DNA of 44,926 nucleotides from assembly GCA_964471375.1 (NCBI GenBank), contig CAYYFM010000073.1, positions 1 through 44,926 on the forward strand, read 5' to 3'. The notes under the pieces were generated by a model. It made no database searches and was not told where the DNA came from. It saw nothing but the letters and a program-made list of their open reading frames with translations. This DNA is from an uncultured Gammaproteobacteria bacterium (GTDB lineage Bacteria; Patescibacteriota; Patescibacteriia; UBA9934; GWF2-40-263). The stretch's first letter is position 1, and the number at the start of each line of letters is the position of its first letter. Below, in pieces: positions 11,087 to 44,665 of the stretch. The translations under genes were made by a program, and so were the position numbers.

Positions 11087-11164
11087 AGATCATTGACACT
11101 ATACCACGTTTCTAGTATCCTTTCAGCATAAATCGATCTTGGCTCTTGAATCTTTCAAACATTT

Positions 11165-11323
11165 ATGGGAATGAGAAAAAAAATTCGATTAATGTGGAAG
11201 AAGGACCGACAGGTCAATCTTGCTGATCAACGCAAAGCAAAAGCAATTCGTCTCACGAAAGCAGGATCCACCGCAACAAAAGTTGGATCAAAGGCGAGTG
11301 CCGCTAAGACCCAAAGTCACTAA
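11165..11323 (+). CDS. possible small basic protein (52 aa)
   Basis: Hand-translated as MGMRKKIRLMWKKDRQVNLADQRKAKAIRLTKAGSTATKVGSKASAAKTQSH. It is below the track's size cutoff, no family is recognised, and there is no clear SD. Confidence 0.25.
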   Translation: MGMRKKIRLMWKKDRQVNLADQRKAKAIRLTKAGSTATKVGSKASAAKTQSH

Positions 11324-11355
11324 GAGCCGGTCACTTTCGACCGACTCTTAGTGAC
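11316..11355. repeat. 17-bp-stem hairpin sharing the CTAAGAGCCGG core of the REP family
   Basis: GTCACTAAGAGCCGGTC-actttc-GACCGACTCTTAGTGAC (one mismatch). It overlaps the small-ORF stop and the GTG listed as the rlmN start. Confidence 0.8.
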
Positions 11356-11365
11356 CACCTCGCGT

Positions 11366-12463
11366 ATGCGCAAGGAGCAGTTCAGCCAATTATTTCCCGA
11401 CACGCCTGCTTACCGCTGGAAACAGATTGAGCAGGCGTTTTTCGTTCCGACCATTGTGTCTTGGGATGGCATCACTTCGCTTTCAAAAAAAATGCGAGCG
11501 GGCCTTGTGGACATTCCGTTTATGTCGGTGAAGGCAACACAAATCATGGTCAGTGCAAAAAAAGATACACACAAAGCATTACTTGAGTTATCTGATGGTC
11601 AAATCGTCGAATCTGTTCTCATGGAGAACGCACGCGGCGATTGGACGATTTGCGTTTCCTCACAGGTCGGTTGCGCCATGCGCTGTGGGTTTTGTGCCAC
11701 AGGAAAAATGGGCCTGAAGCGATCGCTCACGACCGATGAGATTGTGGATCAGTACCGATTCTGGAACTACTTCCTAGCCACTTTTTTACCCACCAAAGCT
11801 TTAGCGTCGGTGGGAGTCCAGTCCGAGACGGACGGGACTAAAGTCCCTAGGAACATGAAACGGATCAGCAACATCGTTTTCATGGGCATGGGTGAACCAC
11901 TTGCGAATTACGAAAATGTCAAAGCAACGCTCAACACATGGCTTGCCAATACCGACATTGGAAAAACACGCATCACGGTTTCAACGGTCGGAGTGCTTCC
12001 CCGTCTCGAACAAATCCTGACCGACAAAGACTGGCCACACGTTCGCCTCGCTGTCTCGCTTCACTCTGCAATTGCCGAAACGCGCAAACAGATCGTGCCA
12101 ACATCGTACGATGATTTTCTTCCAAAACTGCAAGACTGGGCGCGACGTTACTTGAGCATCCTTGGAAACCGTCGTCATCATCTGACGTTTGAGTACGTGA
12201 TGCTGAAAAACATCAACGACACCGACGAACACGCGCATGCACTCGCCGCATTCGTTCACTCGATTGGAAACGTCCGATGTAATCTCATTCCATACAACTT
12301 GACCGATTGTGAATTTTCGCGAAGCGAAGACAATCAGATTGCAAAATTTATTTCCATTTTAGAAAAAGCAGACGTCACCGCGACACGTCGAAAAACCATG
12401 GGAGATGATATCGCTGCTGCTTGTGGACAGTTGATTGTGCTATCAAAAAAAGCCAAAGGTTAA
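11366..12463 (+). CDS. rlmN: 23S rRNA/tRNA (adenine-C2)-methyltransferase, radical SAM
   Basis: AYRWKQIEQAFF, QVGCAMRCGFCATG (CxxxCxxC), MGMGEPLANY and GDDIAAACGQL motifs. Start set at ATG 11366, outside the hairpin. An 83-bp repeat is read through in frame. Confidence 0.9.
   Translation: MRKEQFSQLFPDTPAYRWKQIEQAFFVPTIVSWDGITSLSKKMRAGLVDIPFMSVKATQIMVSAKKDTHKALLELSDGQIVESVLMENARGDWTICVSSQVGCAMRCGFCATGKMGLKRSLTTDEIVDQYRFWNYFLATFLPTKALASVGVQSETDGTKVPRNMKRISNIVFMGMGEPLANYENVKATLNTWLANTDIGKTRITVSTVGVLPRLEQILTDKDWPHVRLAVSLHSAIAETRKQIVPTSYDDFLPKLQDWARRYLSILGNRRHHLTFEYVMLKNINDTDEHAHALAAFVHSIGNVRCNLIPYNLTDCEFSRSEDNQIAKFISILEKADVTATRRKTMGDDIAAACGQLIVLSKKAKG
11771..11853. repeat. composite palindromic element (83 bp) inside rlmN
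   Basis: TTCCTAGCCACTtttttaCCCACCaaagctttagcgtcGGTGGGagtccagtccgagacgGACGGGACTAAAGTCCCTAGGAA. Translated as FLATFLPTKALASVGVQSETDGTKVPRN. Confidence 0.9.
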
Positions 12464-12470
12464 CCCTCGG

Positions 12471-13103
12471 CTAGTGGAAGACGGATAGACCTTCGCGAAT
12501 TTGTGGAGTCACCATCCCTTTGCTCTGCAGATAGTTCAAGAACAACTGTGACGCTCGACGCTCAATCTGTGGCGTCAATCGACGAAGAACATTTTCAAAA
12601 TAGCTCAGCACCCATTCGTCGAACGGACCAGTGATCGTTCGGTCGATGAGTACCATGATCGGCTTTTGATCCTTAAATGGATGTTTCGTCAGACGCGAGA
12701 CAATCGCAACAGAACCAGGTCTGAACAACTGAACAAATTGTTCATGTCCAATCAGGAAACCTAGAACCTGATCACTTCCCCACTGAATCACTTCCTGATC
12801 CGTTGAAGGAATCCCCTCGATACTGCGAACGAGTTCTGCAAAGAGCATGTCGACCAGTTCAGCGAGCAACCCGTTGATCTTGTTGCATGACCAAACGTCT
12901 GGTCCGTCTCCTTTGAAACCTTCGTCACGCGAGTACGAAAGCATATAGCACCCGTCCTTCAGATCACGTCGAACATGCGCCAGCATTCCCGTCAATTCCG
13001 CAAGAGACTGCCCTGCGATTTTCGGCTCCGTCACGATCGTGATCGGATTCACATTGCTCTGATCAACGAAAACGTGCAAACGGAACAGTCTAGAGTTTCC
13101 CAT
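12471..13103 (-). CDS. hypothetical protein (210 aa, GC-richer island)
   Basis: Start set at ATG 13101-13103 (MGNSRLF), preceded by a GAGAGGAGA SD, with its own TTGACT-17-TACTAT promoter. No family recognised. Confidence 0.6.
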   Translation of the reverse strand: MGNSRLFRLHVFVDQSNVNPITIVTEPKIAGQSLAELTGMLAHVRRDLKDGCYMLSYSRDEGFKGDGPDVWSCNKINGLLAELVDMLFAELVRSIEGIPSTDQEVIQWGSDQVLGFLIGHEQFVQLFRPGSVAIVSRLTKHPFKDQKPIMVLIDRTITGPFDEWVLSYFENVLRRLTPQIERRASQLFLNYLQSKGMVTPQIREGLSVFH

Positions 13104-13145
13104 TGTCTCCTCTCTTTGTCCTGGATACATTCCAGAAACGCAATG

Positions 13146-13174
13146 ATAGTATCAAAATATTATGAACGAGTCAA
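13146..13174 (-). promoter_or_regulatory. sigma70-like promoter TTGACT-17nt-TACTAT
   Basis: On the minus strand, -35 at 13169-13174 and -10 at 13146-13151. Confidence 0.45.
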
Positions 13175-13304
13175 CACGCAGTCTTGTCCCAATACAAAAT
13201 GAGCCCCAAATGGGTTTTCGATTCCAATGCAACATGAGCCCCAAATGAGGGGGTTTTGGAATCATCCACAGCTTGGAGTACGGAAGGGGTTTATGATTTT
13301 TTTT

Positions 13305-13448
13305 ATGAATGACAATCTACTCGTAACCGTAGAGCAACTTTCAGCGTTTGTGTCCGCATCCCGCGACATGAACTTTGTTGGAGGAACTCGTCGAGAAAAG
13401 TACACGTGGATTGAGCGCCCGGCTCTAAGAGCCGGGCGACCACTGTAA
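13305..13448 (+). pseudogene. probable 5' remnant of a transposase/integrase gene, truncated by a REP hairpin
   Basis: MNDNLLVTVEQLSAFVSASRDMNFVGGTRREKYTWIER resembles N-termini I recall from rve-type integrase/transposase genes (unverified). The frame then runs into REP-encoded PALRAGRPL and stops. Confidence 0.3.
13416..13438. repeat. REP hairpin (variant)
   Basis: CGCCCGGCTC-taa-GAGCCGGGCG, a perfect 10-bp stem. Confidence 0.85.
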
Positions 13449-13458
13449 ACATTGGGTC

Positions 13459-13481
13459 ATTCCGGCTCTAAGAGCCGGAAT
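13459..13481. repeat. REP hairpin
   Basis: ATTCCGGCTC-taa-GAGCCGGAAT, identical to the copies flanking the RAYT gene. Confidence 0.9.
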
Positions 13482-13484
13482 TGC

Positions 13485-13513
13485 TTGACAGGGGGTGAGT
13501 TTCGAGGTACGCT
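13485..13513 (+). promoter_or_regulatory. sigma70-like promoter TTGACA-17nt-TACGCT
   Basis: Lies immediately after the REP hairpin and upstream of the 13557 gene. Confidence 0.4.
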
Positions 13514-13556
13514 CAGTGTCCGTCTGATGTTCAATTTCAACTTAACGGATGGAGAA

Positions 13557-14384
13557 ATGACTTCTATTACCTTTGCCGATGTAGTGGGGTGGACGGATAG
13601 TTTGGAACTGTTTCGTCTCACCCATGATCAACTCATTCTTCAAGAAGGAGAAAAGGATTTACTCCCTGTCAGAGCTCTGCGAACGGTCATGACTGACTAC
13701 TTCGCTGGCCGTACCTTTCAGGGAAACGCTCTGATGACCGTTCGCGAGGTCGAGGACGACTCACATCCTGCCATGACCCACCTACGTCGTGGAGCATTCC
13801 TCACAGGAGTTGCTTCGGCACGTCAGCATGCCAATGGACGATTCGAGGTGATCGATTCAGCACGCATTGCATCGACAGGGCTGAAGTACATTACTCGGGC
13901 GTTTCTGCACCTACGTCAAGAAGATTTCTTTCGCGTTTTCAGCACCGTTGATGCTGCTCATGAGCCGTTCCTTCACCATGCGCTTGCCGGTGCCCTTTCG
14001 GAAGCTCATGTGGCCACCCTTGTCGTCAAAACCGGATACACAATTCGTTTCCCGACGACAGAAGAAGATCTCCTGTTCGGAGTTGACTGGATCGTTCCAT
14101 TTGGCGATGGGTCCTGTGGAGTGGTGCTCCAAGTCAAAAGTAATGTCGAATCATCCGGTATTGAGTTCGTCGCCGTGACACAACAAAATGCTTTCCATTC
14201 TCCCAGTGGACCGAACCTCTTTCGGGATGGCTGGTCAAAGACCCAGGGATTCAATGAAGCGTATAACGTGTCCTACTCCCCTGCCATCGCTTACGTAGTC
14301 AGCACGAGCGACCGACGATTCCACTTCGACCGACAGGGCAACATCGATGTCACTCGCGCATTCCTCACCTCTCTCGCCTCATAG
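13557..14384 (+). CDS. hypothetical protein (275 aa) with a possible PD-(D/E)xK-like motif
   Basis: ATG at 13557 follows GGAG (13551-13554); the alternative ATG at 13527 is in frame. The track's longer N-terminus (MGHSGSKSRN..) is REP sequence. EAH..GVDWIV..VVLQVKS loosely fits a restriction-endonuclease-fold motif (weak). Confidence 0.6.
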   Translation: MTSITFADVVGWTDSLELFRLTHDQLILQEGEKDLLPVRALRTVMTDYFAGRTFQGNALMTVREVEDDSHPAMTHLRRGAFLTGVASARQHANGRFEVIDSARIASTGLKYITRAFLHLRQEDFFRVFSTVDAAHEPFLHHALAGALSEAHVATLVVKTGYTIRFPTTEEDLLFGVDWIVPFGDGSCGVVLQVKSNVESSGIEFVAVTQQNAFHSPSGPNLFRDGWSKTQGFNEAYNVSYSPAIAYVVSTSDRRFHFDRQGNIDVTRAFLTSLAS

Positions 14385-14485
14385 CCCTTCGACGGTCTTG
14401 ACAGGCGAGTTTTTTTATCGTCAAACGTGTGACGAGGTGGTAAACTTTATCCATCATTTTTAATGGACATCTGTCCACCGATCAT

Positions 14486-14761
14486 ATGAACCTTCGTGAG
14501 GTACCACCAGGTCAACCTAAATCTCCGTTCGACGCTCCAGAGCCGCCGTGGGAACTGAGCAAAAACGGTCCTCCTGAGTTTCAAGATAACGAGAACCCAG
14601 CCACGGGACAGATTACAGTAGATATTCACCCAGACGACAAAGGGATACAAATTGTCGACATCAAGCCTAGCCCAGAAGATTCCCTTGAAGAAGTATTTCC
14701 AATGGATGACGAAGAATCGGATGAGCCAATCGAAATGCCAGCCGCTGAGGAAGCGGCGTAA
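14486..14761 (+). CDS. small acidic Pro/Glu/Asp-rich protein (91 aa)
   Basis: ORF followed by a double TAA and a strong terminator. The C-terminus is DSLEEVFPMDDEESDEPIEMPAAEEAA. No family recognised. Confidence 0.5.
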   Translation: MNLREVPPGQPKSPFDAPEPPWELSKNGPPEFQDNENPATGQITVDIHPDDKGIQIVDIKPSPEDSLEEVFPMDDEESDEPIEMPAAEEAA

Positions 14762-14766
14762 TAAAC

Positions 14767-36049: not shown

Positions 36050-36999
36050 ATTCCGGCTCTTAGAGCCGGAATCAAAACGACAGAATTATACAATCACTTA
36101 ATCCTAAACCCCAGCAAACGGTGCCATTCCGGCTCTAAGAGCCGGAATGGCTTTGACAGAGTAAGATGCCCGAAAGATTAGAACCAGACGAATGATGGTT
36201 CTTCTGCTCCAAAAAAAGTCGGAACTTTCAGATATTGTAGATACGCTTCTTTCGTTGCAAACCACTTTCGCACTATTTCTTCATCAACAACAGGTAACCG
36301 CTGTTTATTTTTCAAATAGACTGGATGACTAGACCAGCGATATTCATTCAGCTTTCTTTCGGCTCCACCATCCCAATTGGTATGACCGCCATCCCGCCAT
36401 TCAAATGGAGACCCATCTAAGGCATTTAAATGAATATAGCGTGGCAACAACTGAAGATGTTCTTCGGAATCGACCGGTTTTGCCTTAAAGGGGCCCTCAC
36501 AAAGCCGACCTTTCCGGTCATATCTGATGTTAAAATAATTGGCGTATCCCATTCCAACACGATGAAGAAATTTCGAAATTCCCTCAGGAACGGTTTGTTT
36601 TAGTAATAGGTGAAAATGAGTAGGTCGTAAACAAAATGAAACAATACTGACGAGTGGTTCTCTTCCGTAGGAATAAACCTCATGACCAGCAAGAAGCGCT
36701 TCTCGTTCTATTTCTGTTCCACCTCTGTGCTTATAATTTAGATCATTAAACAAATACATGGATTCATAAAATCGATGGTAATCATGTTCATCCAGAAAAA
36801 TAACCCGCTTATCTACACCACGGTTATAAACATGATAATAGCTGTTCGAAACAATAGGTTCACGCATAATTTTCGTAGTTAATCTGACCCTAACCGTCAT
36901 TCCGGCTCTAAGAGCCGGAATGAGAATCGGAACACCAGAACGGGTTTTTAAGCAAATTACTAGCAAACGGTGCCATTCCGGCTCTAAGAGCCGGAATGG
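36050..36999 (-). mobile_element. RAYT gene with flanking REP hairpins (REP/RAYT unit)
   Basis: REP hairpins at 36050-36072, 36124-36150, 36898-36922 and 36973-36999 bracket the Y1-transposase-like gene. The 38-nt string AGCAAACGGTGCCATTCCGGCTCTAAGAGCCGGAATGG is repeated in direct orientation on both sides (36113-36150 and 36962-36999). Confidence 0.75.
36178..36867 (-). CDS. REP-associated tyrosine transposase (IS200/IS605 TnpA-like, RAYT)
   Basis: YYHVYNRGVDKRVIF, the HUH motif in PTHFHLLLKQ, and the catalytic-Tyr region LLPRYIHLNAL. Start set at ATG 36865-36867 (MREPIV). The track's upstream 63 codons are REP sequence (..IPALRAG..) and overlap murF. Confidence 0.8.
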   Translation of the reverse strand: MREPIVSNSYYHVYNRGVDKRVIFLDEHDYHRFYESMYLFNDLNYKHRGGTEIEREALLAGHEVYSYGREPLVSIVSFCLRPTHFHLLLKQTVPEGISKFLHRVGMGYANYFNIRYDRKGRLCEGPFKAKPVDSEEHLQLLPRYIHLNALDGSPFEWRDGGHTNWDGGAERKLNEYRWSSHPVYLKNKQRLPVVDEEIVRKWFATKEAYLQYLKVPTFFGAEEPSFVWF

Positions 37000-37040
37000 C
37001 CAGAGTCGGGTTGAACCTGAAGATGCGGAACAGTTGGATA

Positions 37041-38330
37041 TTATGTATCGAGCCACGTACCGTACTGGCGGACAAGGAGTTCTTGGGCGTGGGTGGGTTC
37101 GGCTAGGAGGTCTTTTACGGCTTTTTCCATGCGGGAGGATTGGGAGCCTTTTAGGAGAATTACGTCCCCATGCTTTATGTTGAAATCTAACCAGCGACCC
37201 GCTTCGGTGGATGTGGCGAAAAACTGAATGTGGGACTCATCCATTCCTGCTTCAATGGCACCGCGGCGGATATCGCGAGCTTCTTCGTTGACGCAGATAA
37301 GAAGATCAGCAACTTCTGCGGCGCGTAGGCCGAGCAGACGATGTTCCGGAACGCTATACTGACCGAGTTCGGCCATTTTGCCGAGAACGGCAATACGACG
37401 GGCGGAACCTACGGGACTAAAGTCCCTAAGAACTTCCAAGGCTGAACTCATGGATGCTGGTGCCGCATTATATGAGTCGTCGAGCAGAAGCGTTCCTTTG
37501 ATTCCAGCGAGTGGACGCATTCGTCCTGCGTGTGGCTCAAGCGTTGCAAGAGCTGTCACGATCTCATCGATTGTCATGCCAAGCTGTTTGCCAACCGCGG
37601 CAGCGGCAAGAGCGGCATAGACCTGACCACGCCCAAGCAGATTTGGAAGAACAACGGGGGCACGCTCCCGATCGAGACAGAGATCAAAATGAATCGCGCA
37701 CTTATCCATGCTTGTATCTGTCTGATAATTTTCTGCACGGACATCTGAAACGGCGCTGAATCCATACGTCACCGTTCTGCAATCTATTCGCTGTTCGATC
37801 ACAAGCGGATCATCCGCATTCAAAAATGCGACCCCGCCAGATTTCATCTTACGAACGATCTGACCTTTTTCTTTTGCGAGATCTTCCACAGACGCAAAAA
37901 ACTCTGCATGCACGGGAGTGACCGCGGTTAAAACCGAAATATCCGGAGGTGCCATCTGGCAAAGACGTGAAATATCACCAGGATGATCAAGACCAAATTC
38001 GAGGACGAAGTGGGTGGGTAGCGTGTAACGTTTAGCGTTTAGAACTGAAATAGGATACATCAAGCTAAAAGCATTCCAGAAAACTTTAATCCATCCAAAA
38101 AGAGATTTCCCTGGACTCTTCTCTCCGATAATTGTGAGTGGGACACCAAACTCATTATTATAATTTTCTGTAGGTGATCGAACGGAAAATTTTGTGCTCA
38201 AAACCGTCGCGATCGCATTACGCGTCGATGTCTTTCCTACCGACCCTGTAACAGCAATAACGGTTGGATGGTGTTTGTGAAGAATTTGTCTCGCAAAATA
38301 GGCGAGGAGAAATTGGATGAGTTTTTTCAT
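37041..38330 (-). CDS. murF: UDP-N-acetylmuramoyl-tripeptide--D-alanyl-D-alanine ligase
   Basis: Mur ligase P-loop VIAVTGSVGKTSTRNAI and LLLDDSYNAAPASM (MurF DDSYNANP-like). ATGA overlap with the ftsI stop. Contains two small in-frame repeat fragments. Confidence 0.85.
   Translation of the reverse strand: MKKLIQFLLAYFARQILHKHHPTVIAVTGSVGKTSTRNAIATVLSTKFSVRSPTENYNNEFGVPLTIIGEKSPGKSLFGWIKVFWNAFSLMYPISVLNAKRYTLPTHFVLEFGLDHPGDISRLCQMAPPDISVLTAVTPVHAEFFASVEDLAKEKGQIVRKMKSGGVAFLNADDPLVIEQRIDCRTVTYGFSAVSDVRAENYQTDTSMDKCAIHFDLCLDRERAPVVLPNLLGRGQVYAALAAAAVGKQLGMTIDEIVTALATLEPHAGRMRPLAGIKGTLLLDDSYNAAPASMSSALEVLRDFSPVGSARRIAVLGKMAELGQYSVPEHRLLGLRAAEVADLLICVNEEARDIRRGAIEAGMDESHIQFFATSTEAGRWLDFNIKHGDVILLKGSQSSRMEKAVKDLLAEPTHAQELLVRQYGTWLDT
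37411..37433. repeat. single-arm palindromic element inside murF
   Basis: ACGGGACTAAAGTCCCTAAGAAC, read as VLRDFSPV, a different element frame from the full-length copies. Confidence 0.85.
38018..38042. repeat. TAGCGT-word fragment inside murF
   Basis: GTAGCGTGTAACGTTTAGCGTTTAG uses the same words as the hairpin at 7288-7387 and the stretch at 8843-8866. Read in frame as LNAKRYTLP. Confidence 0.7.
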
Positions 38331-44589: not shown

Positions 44590-44665
44590 TGGTCGGGCTG
44601 GCGGGATTTGAACCCACGGCCTCTTCGTCCCGAACGAAGCGCGCTACCATCTGCGCCACAGCCCG
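44590..44665 (-). tRNA. tRNA-Pro (anticodon CGG), CCA encoded
   Basis: The reverse complement CGGGCTGTGGCGCAGATGGTAGCGCGCTTCGTTCGGGACGAAGAGGCCGTGGGTTCAAATCCCGCCAGCCCGACCA folds as a cloverleaf: a 7-bp acceptor stem, GCGC D stem, CTTCG/CGAAG anticodon stem with loop TTCGGGA, and T arm GTGGG-TTCAAAT-CCCGC. Confidence 0.9.

Follow-up and report, generated by a model that had tools for sequence, protein, structure and literature searches.

A probably variable rlmN-SIMPL junction in a Patescibacteria genome, with three lineage-restricted genes and the scars of two mobile elements

Do three unrecognised genes that lie side by side between rlmN and the SIMPL gene of a small Patescibacteria genome make up one accessory island, or does each have a history of its own? 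The question is raised by a 2.3-kb stretch (positions 12471-14761) of a 44,926-nt window, by which we mean the whole stretch of DNA analysed. The window is contig C73 of the host genome (G000), a 1.14-Mb metagenome-assembled genome of 98 contigs that is 98% complete and whose close relatives are deposited as Candidatus Uhrbacteria (Patescibacteria) metagenome-assembled genomes. A first-pass annotation made from the sequence had seen here a GC-richer island of three open reading frames (ORFs), possibly a defence or addiction module, with mobile-element remnants at its core. We find instead that the stretch is probably not a single island but a variable junction, flanked by rlmN and the SIMPL gene, that contains three unrelated, lineage-restricted genes and the scars of two mobile elements. 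The genes concerned, with the three ORFs here called A, B and C, are the following.

11351-12463, plus strand: rlmN-like radical-SAM gene
12471-13103, minus strand: gene A, an ORF of 210 amino acids (aa)
13557-14384, plus strand: gene B, an ORF of 275 aa, for which the gene caller preferred the ATG at 13527, giving 285 aa
14486-14761, plus strand: gene C, an ORF of 91 aa, acidic
14801-15622, minus strand: SIMPL gene

All three ORFs are present where the first-pass annotation had placed them, and they remain as unrecognised as it had found them: A, B, C and a transposase stump between A and B give nothing significant in scans of Pfam, NCBIfam, PADLOC and PHROGs. PADLOC-DB in particular yields no defence-model match for any of the four at E <= 1. 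Searches of the PDB with profiles of the A, B and C families return nothing meaningful, and an Rfam scan of positions 12300-14900 gives chance-level matches only.

The order of genes at this junction differs among relatives. In a sister genome of the same genus (G008), whose rlmN is 87% identical to that of the host, rlmN is followed by a 179-aa ORF, a 636-aa ABC transporter, a repetitive extragenic palindrome (REP), a B gene (72% identical), a C gene (about 50% identical), the SIMPL gene and a DUF475 gene. G008 thereby shares only the synteny of B, C and SIMPL, with A and the stump replaced by the ABC-transporter segment. DNA homology between the two genomes spans window positions 11161-12491, 13458-14377 and 14697-15625. 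Window positions 12492-13457 (A, the stump and the first of two REPs) and 3.2 kb of G008 (the 179-aa ORF and the ABC gene) are mutually exclusive, and the right-hand breakpoint is a REP common to both genomes. Directly after its rlmN, G008 keeps about 30 nt of the 3' end of A (locus L029, 1510-1540, against window 12464-12500), a stub overlapped by the start of the 179-aa ORF. In a third genome (G002) an orthologue of the ABC gene (61% identical) lies directly beside the SIMPL gene, with neither B nor C present. The host genome contains no orthologue of the ABC gene, its best match being 29-32% identical.

The breakpoint in the host genome coincides with the remains of two kinds of mobile element, both in the gap between A and B.

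13180-13417, plus strand: stump of the left end of an insertion sequence (IS) of the rve (DDE) type, 92% identical over 239 bp to positions 1369-1606 of contig C84 of the same genome
13416-13438: REP, variant copy CGCCCGGCTCT-A-AGAGCCGGGCG, abutting the IS truncation point
13458-13482: REP, canonical copy CATTCCGGCTCTAAGAGCCGGAAT, also upstream of B in G008

The truncated transposase-like ORF that the first pass had read in this gap is therefore genuine, as are its two REP hairpins. The stump has the 14-bp subterminal repeat ATGAGCCCCAAATG twice, at 13199 and at 13234. A 73-aa ORF (13227-13448) corresponds to the transposase stump, its first 31 residues lying upstream of the start of the full copy. 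The IS stump retains the conserved N-terminal codons of the transposase and is cut at 13417, exactly where the first REP starts. The only full copy of the IS in the assembly, about 1.4 kb long, is on contig C84 (2733 bp), and its 410-aa transposase matches rve (E = 7e-8; 33.1 bits against a cut-off of 32.6). This copy resembles other rve (DDE) IS elements in its rve domain and in its matching subterminal repeats at both ends (ATGAGCCCCAAAT, with two copies on the left and one, inverted, on the right), and we assign it to this type.

Both hairpins are instances of one 25-nt REP palindrome, whose core, CCGGCTCT[A/T]AGAGCCGG, occurs 17 times in the 1.14-Mb genome against about 1e-4 copies expected by chance. 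Its full form is CATTCCGGCTCT[A/T]AGAGCCGGAATG; the genomic copies have conserved CATT/AATG flanks, and several occur as doublets 76 bp apart. As a pair, the two copies in the gap fold at -43.9 kcal/mol (z = -6.7). The same window contains a minus-strand ORF (36178-37056) flanked by REP doublets at 36053/36129 and 36902/36978. It bears HUH (THFHLL) and YIHLN motifs and matches Y1_Tnp (IS200-like) with E = 6e-4 and 20.3 bits, under the Pfam cut-off of 23. This ORF is probably the REP-associated tyrosine transposase (RAYT) that spreads this REP family, and its true start is probably the methionine of MREPIV, downstream of REP-encoded residues. A short, perfect, dispersed palindrome with a Y1-transposase-like gene between REP doublets is the arrangement of known REP/RAYT systems. 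The present one differs from them in that its Y1_Tnp match is below the cut-off, that the host belongs to the Patescibacteria, and that one REP here marks the end of a deletion and directly precedes the -35 box of B.

A history that would account for these breakpoints starts from an ancestor of the host genome and G008 with the order rlmN-A-...-ABC-REP-B-C-SIMPL. An IS of the rve type would have inserted next to A. In the host lineage, a deletion running from inside the IS to the REP would have removed the IS beyond its first 239 bp along with the ABC segment, and in G008 most of A would have been lost. The order of the deletion events is what we infer from the breakpoints, and the IS may itself have caused the deletion beside it. 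The order of events depends on three genomes and a 30-nt stub. A point against the reading of the genes as separate is that each of the two genomes with this B paralogue has C next to it, which leaves room for a functional link between B and C.

The adjacency of A and B could also be an artefact in which assembly joined two loci at a repeated IS or REP. There are repeats exactly at the junction, the genome is a metagenome assembly of 98 contigs, and an independent Logan contig (run ERR3478687; 98.2% identity over 1405 nt) ends inside the IS stump, at 13218. That contig nevertheless runs from the 3' end of rlmN through an identical A to nucleotide 39 of the stump, and its rlmN-A-IS order supports that side of the junction. 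The stump, moreover, is a distinct copy, 92% and not 100% identical to that on C84; the REP, at 25 nt, is shorter than the usual assembly k-mers; and both flanks are syntenic with one G008 contig (rlmN ... B-C-SIMPL). We consider a false join very improbable.

The composition of the three genes is within the normal spread of the genome. Genome ORFs of 200 aa or more have a GC content of 0.474 ± 0.035. The values here are 0.492 for A (z = 0.5), 0.524 for B (z = 1.45) and 0.505 for C (z = 0.9); rlmN, at 0.487, is about as GC-rich as A. The higher GC content suggested in the first pass is real for B alone, and weak there; A and C are barely raised. The first-pass annotation had itself named a composition typical of the lineage as an argument against its proposal, and for the B family this is largely what we find. 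A true compositional outlier lies elsewhere in the window: ORF 547-1701, unlike A, B and C, has a GC content of 0.594 (z = 3.5) and a third-position GC (GC3) of 0.72 (z = 3.8).

The family of A is confined to this genus. The only match of A in 5.8 billion protein clusters is A itself, and a word-indexed homology search finds no relatives. Within the genus, a profile built from weak matches detects the family in seven of nine genomes; in the 28 other genera covered, it detects none. These relatives are 277-308 aa long, at times in tandem, and in several congeners they adjoin ychF and a GIY-YIG gene; the ychF locus of the host has no such gene. In the genus alignment, A (isoelectric point (pI) 6.2) is without an internal segment of about 45-65 aa that contains CxxC in its relatives, and on this basis A is a shortened member of a genus-restricted protein family. 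The family shows no similarity to Pfam or the PDB, and no member in the viral and JGI metagenome contigs scanned.

The B family is much larger. A word-indexed homology search recovers two to four relatives of B, and an exhaustive hidden Markov model (HMM) search recovers 225 clusters at 50% identity, 78 of them with E < 1e-10; all 150 of the clusters listed have lengths of 150-330 aa. By profile, the host's taxonomic family has B-family members in 50 of its 73 genomes and 22 of its 29 genera, with one to three copies per genome and frequent tandem pairs; outside that taxonomic family, only four of 250 genomes drawn from across the phylum have any. A Ser_hydrolase gene (PF06821) divergently adjoins the B-family gene, often present as a tandem pair, in 20 of 25 loci examined across genera, loci L059-L078 of 20 relatives among them. 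This conserved place speaks for vertical descent at a constant position.

In a quick tree, the B of the window and its G008 orthologue form a long branch inside a clade (99% support) with paralogues of the genus that lie beside an AI-2E transporter gene, and B is, by this tree, a diverged paralogue from a duplication inside the lineage. The host's second copy (C62:5467-6054, locus L012), which lies beside the AI-2E transporter gene, has 165 aa and an in-frame TAA; its G008 orthologue is intact, with 260 aa. The B gene of the window may thus be the sole working copy of the family in this genome.

Only four of the 73 genomes, belonging to three genera, have homologues of C (49-56% identical). 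Two of them carry C away from B, among unrelated neighbours: one of these genomes (G066) has no B-family member, and in the other (G084) the B-family member is on another contig. Scans of viral and JGI metagenome collections find no relative of C, and Pfam, PHROGs and the PDB show no homology to it.

These patterns bear directly on the proposal that A, B and C arrived together by horizontal transfer, as a defence or addiction island that the IS or the REPs had mobilised. In its favour are the mobile-element remnants between A and B, the accessory status of all three genes within the genus, and the codon usage of B, whose synonymous-codon likelihood is among the lowest 6% of genome ORFs. Yet the three families differ in distribution and in neighbours, A is absent from the only other genome with this B-C pair, and B, by the tree, arose through a duplication within the lineage. 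The usual marks of a genomic island are also missing from the stretch: no GC z-score exceeds 1.45, the sole tRNA in the window is at 44590, no integrase or flanking direct repeat accompanies the genes, and the IS stump lies inside the region and not at its borders. We regard a common island as hardly credible, and the idea of a single defence or addiction module is not sustained.

The reading of the stretch as a variable junction leaves the question of what B encodes. The first pass had noted a weak E..D..QxK pattern reminiscent of PD-(D/E)xK nucleases, and this pattern is real and conserved across 84 family members. In the numbering of the 285-aa protein, the family signature is G155, (E180)D181, D187 and Q202-V-K204, with D181 conserved in 79, D187 in 82, Q202 in 75 and K204 in 73 of the 84; in the 275-aa numbering, the candidate active site is E170/D171, D177, Q192 and K194. 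These residues fall in the second of two domains, a helical N-terminal domain being followed by a C-terminal alpha/beta domain encoded at nt 13959-14381. In the AlphaFold2 model of full-length B (predicted local distance difference test score (pLDDT) 78), the N-terminal domain consists of helices alone (H48-144). When the C-terminal domain is modelled by itself (pLDDT 83.6), it contains the elements H5-26, E46-50, E55-63, E70-74, H89-104 and E107-115, an alpha-beta-beta-beta-alpha-beta core.

Because the motif is joined by a profile-profile match to Mrr_cat and by structural matches, the assignment of B as a PD-(D/E)xK-type nuclease-fold protein is supported. Compared by hhalign with a Mrr_cat profile drawn from domains of 14 Patescibacteria genomes, the B family matches with a probability of 73% (P = 3e-5), with D187 aligned to the D, and QVK to the QxK, of Mrr. 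The alignment score is 31.6, against 10.1 ± 1.8 (maximum 16.2) in 200 column shuffles, and controls with the reversed sequence and with the N-terminal domain give P = 0.3-0.4. In a Foldseek search with the C-terminal domain, most of the 50 best PDB matches are PD-(D/E)xK nucleases, led by the DREN of SPARDA (E = 2e-3, probability 0.98) and Hjc (probability 0.99); further matches include I-Ssp6803I, arenavirus cap-snatching endonucleases, R2 restriction-like endonucleases (RLE) and DdmD.

Several observations weigh against this assignment. The Foldseek E-values are marginal (2e-3 and weaker), with TM-scores of 0.3-0.47; the AlphaFold2 alignment comprised just six sequences; and the full-length model finds no fold match in the PDB or BFVD. 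B reaches no Pfam or NCBIfam threshold, so that membership of the curated Mrr_cat family is not established, and other family members give only sub-threshold matches to DUF4365, PDDEXK_9 and Mrr_cat (E = 0.03-0.07). With the nuclease-fold reading retained, B would most likely bind nucleic acid through its helical N-terminal domain and cleave DNA in a metal-dependent manner, an activity and a substrate predicted from the motif and the models.

Three known groups of nucleases offer comparisons. The catalytic motif of Mrr, a variant of PD-(D/E)xK, is usually named 'PD-QXK' (PMC11037411). With Mrr_cat (PF04471), B shares the order of helix, strand, D-bearing strand and QxK-bearing strand, its D177 and Q192-x-K194 being in register, but it is under the Pfam threshold, and its N-terminal domain, all-helical and without a Pfam or Foldseek match, is not the winged-helix reader Mrr_N. 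At 275-285 aa, B is close in size to Escherichia coli Mrr, whose catalytic domain is likewise C-terminal. Type IV restriction genes are typically scattered, whereas the B family occupies a conserved chromosomal place in one lineage. As to a sporadic, island-like distribution, the picture is mixed: the place is fixed in 20 of 25 loci, yet 29% of good genomes are without the family, tandem duplicates are common and one paralogue is decayed.

The second comparison is with DREN (DUF4365), the effector nuclease of SPARDA short-Argonaute systems (PMC12205087; PDB 9qcc, 9vx6, 9jsz). It is the best structural match of the C-terminal domain of B, and two members of the B family have weak matches to DUF4365. 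In contrast to SPARDA, no Argonaute/APAZ partner gene is present among the B-family neighbours inspected, and sequence identity is 16-19% over 83-93 columns. DUF4365 is found in none of 201 genomes sampled from the phylum, a search that says little, since the domain failed to register in the control genomes too. With archaeal Hjc (PDB 2wcw, 1ob8), B shares a compact PD-(D/E)xK core (TM-score 0.45 on target length), but it adds a helical N-terminal domain of about 140 aa and has QxK in place of ExK, and its host already has RuvC. The idea that B fills the place of a missing Holliday-junction resolvase was rejected, as RuvC is present in 63 of the 73 genomes, the host's included; RecU is present in none.

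The B family could still be a housekeeping DNA repair or recombination nuclease of Uhrbacteria, such as a structure-specific endonuclease, with the copy in the window a redundant paralogue. The place beside Ser_hydrolase is kept across genera, 71% of high-quality genomes have the family, and Hjc resolvases are among the best structural matches. The N-terminal domain is conserved as well, with a mean pairwise identity of 17% where the C-terminal domain has 23%, which sets it apart from hypervariable specificity domains. Against a housekeeping role, no resolvase is missing from these genomes, the family is not found in the remaining 29% of high-quality genomes or in five of the nine genomes of the genus, and the tandem duplicates and the decayed C62 paralogue suggest a dispensable gene with high turnover. 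On balance, this role is possible but unlikely.

The following expression signals were found around the three genes.

13146-13174, minus strand: promoter-like site for A, TTGACT-17-TACTAT with a TG extension, from a consensus scan only
13485-13513, plus strand: promoter-like site for B, TTGACA-17-TACGCT, directly after the REP, read from the sequence
12451-12472: hairpin where the convergent rlmN and A meet (-13 kcal/mol, z = -3.5), with a U-run after it on the minus strand; the hairpin is kept in G008
14762-14803: hairpin, a strong bidirectional terminator, between C and the convergent SIMPL gene (-27.5 kcal/mol, z = -10.2)

The first-pass claim of a TTGACA-type promoter and a Shine-Dalgarno sequence for each gene stands in part. 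TTGACA-like boxes exist, and a GGAG Shine-Dalgarno precedes both A and B, that of B being kept in G008. The promoter scan, however, returned one site, that of A, against 2.4 expected from shuffled sequence; the box of B is below its threshold, although G008 keeps a counterpart (TTGACA-17-TACGAT); and inspection of the sequence upstream of C reveals no visible Shine-Dalgarno. The hairpin at 12451-12472 overlaps the 3' ends of both rlmN and A and is likely the terminator of A. Upstream of B, the TTGACA box begins within 2-3 nt of the end of the REP both in the host genome (13482-13513) and in G008 (L029, around 4760-4800), and the REP may supply or shield the promoter of B. The scan found no terminator between B and C; C would be transcribed after or together with B, with transcription ending at the strong terminator.

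C itself is very acidic (pI 4.05), with 24 D or E and 16 P among its 91 residues, a composition that suggests disorder. Conserved in its family are the motifs QPxSx(F/Y)DAPEPP and KG(I/V)Q(I/L/V)V and, near the C-terminus, EP(I/L)E(M/A); the protein ends in A. In its acidic composition C could be compared with DNA-mimic anti-restriction proteins (Ocr/ArdA-like); no homology appears in Pfam, PHROGs or the PDB, and linkage to B is seen in one of three lineages.

These properties could be taken to mean that B and C are a two-gene module driven by the REP-adjacent promoter, in which a nuclease (a toxin or a restriction-like effector) is co-transcribed with an acidic protein that inhibits it, mimics DNA or acts as a regulator. 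The two genes are adjacent on the same strand in both the host genome and G008, without a terminator found between them and with a strong one after C, and a very acidic protein follows one with a nuclease fold. But the host genome and G008 are close kin, and their shared order counts as one observation: C is beside B in one lineage of the three that have it, which makes the adjacency a single lineage-specific observation. The C homologues of G066 and G084 lie among unrelated genes, as described above, and the other loci inspected have no small acidic ORF after their B-family members. A, B and C alike lack a PADLOC match, and C lacks viral relatives in the collection scanned. Any tie between B and C would be drawn from their adjacency, and a module of this kind appears quite unlikely. 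We give somewhat less credence still, as an outside chance, to the fuller proposal that the B family is an undescribed two-domain nuclease, largely of Uhrbacteria and their class, in which a helical DNA-binding domain of a new kind is joined to a D-QxK domain like that of Mrr or DREN, and whose copy in the window is paired with C as its dedicated inhibitor or DNA mimic. If this were true, B and C would be a new nuclease-inhibitor pair, restriction-like or toxin-antitoxin-like, in an ultra-small bacterium.

The main result is a correction, in that an apparent defence island is probably a rearranged junction. The locus is a clean example of an IS stump and REPs marking the breakpoints of a deletion, with a REP directly before a promoter-like site. 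Its B gene belongs to a nuclease-fold family, typical of Uhrbacteria, of about 225 clusters at 50% identity that curated libraries do not cover and that occupies a conserved place in most genomes of one Patescibacteria family. A gene with a nuclease fold that is retained, and often duplicated, in genomes of about 1 Mb is of interest in its own right.

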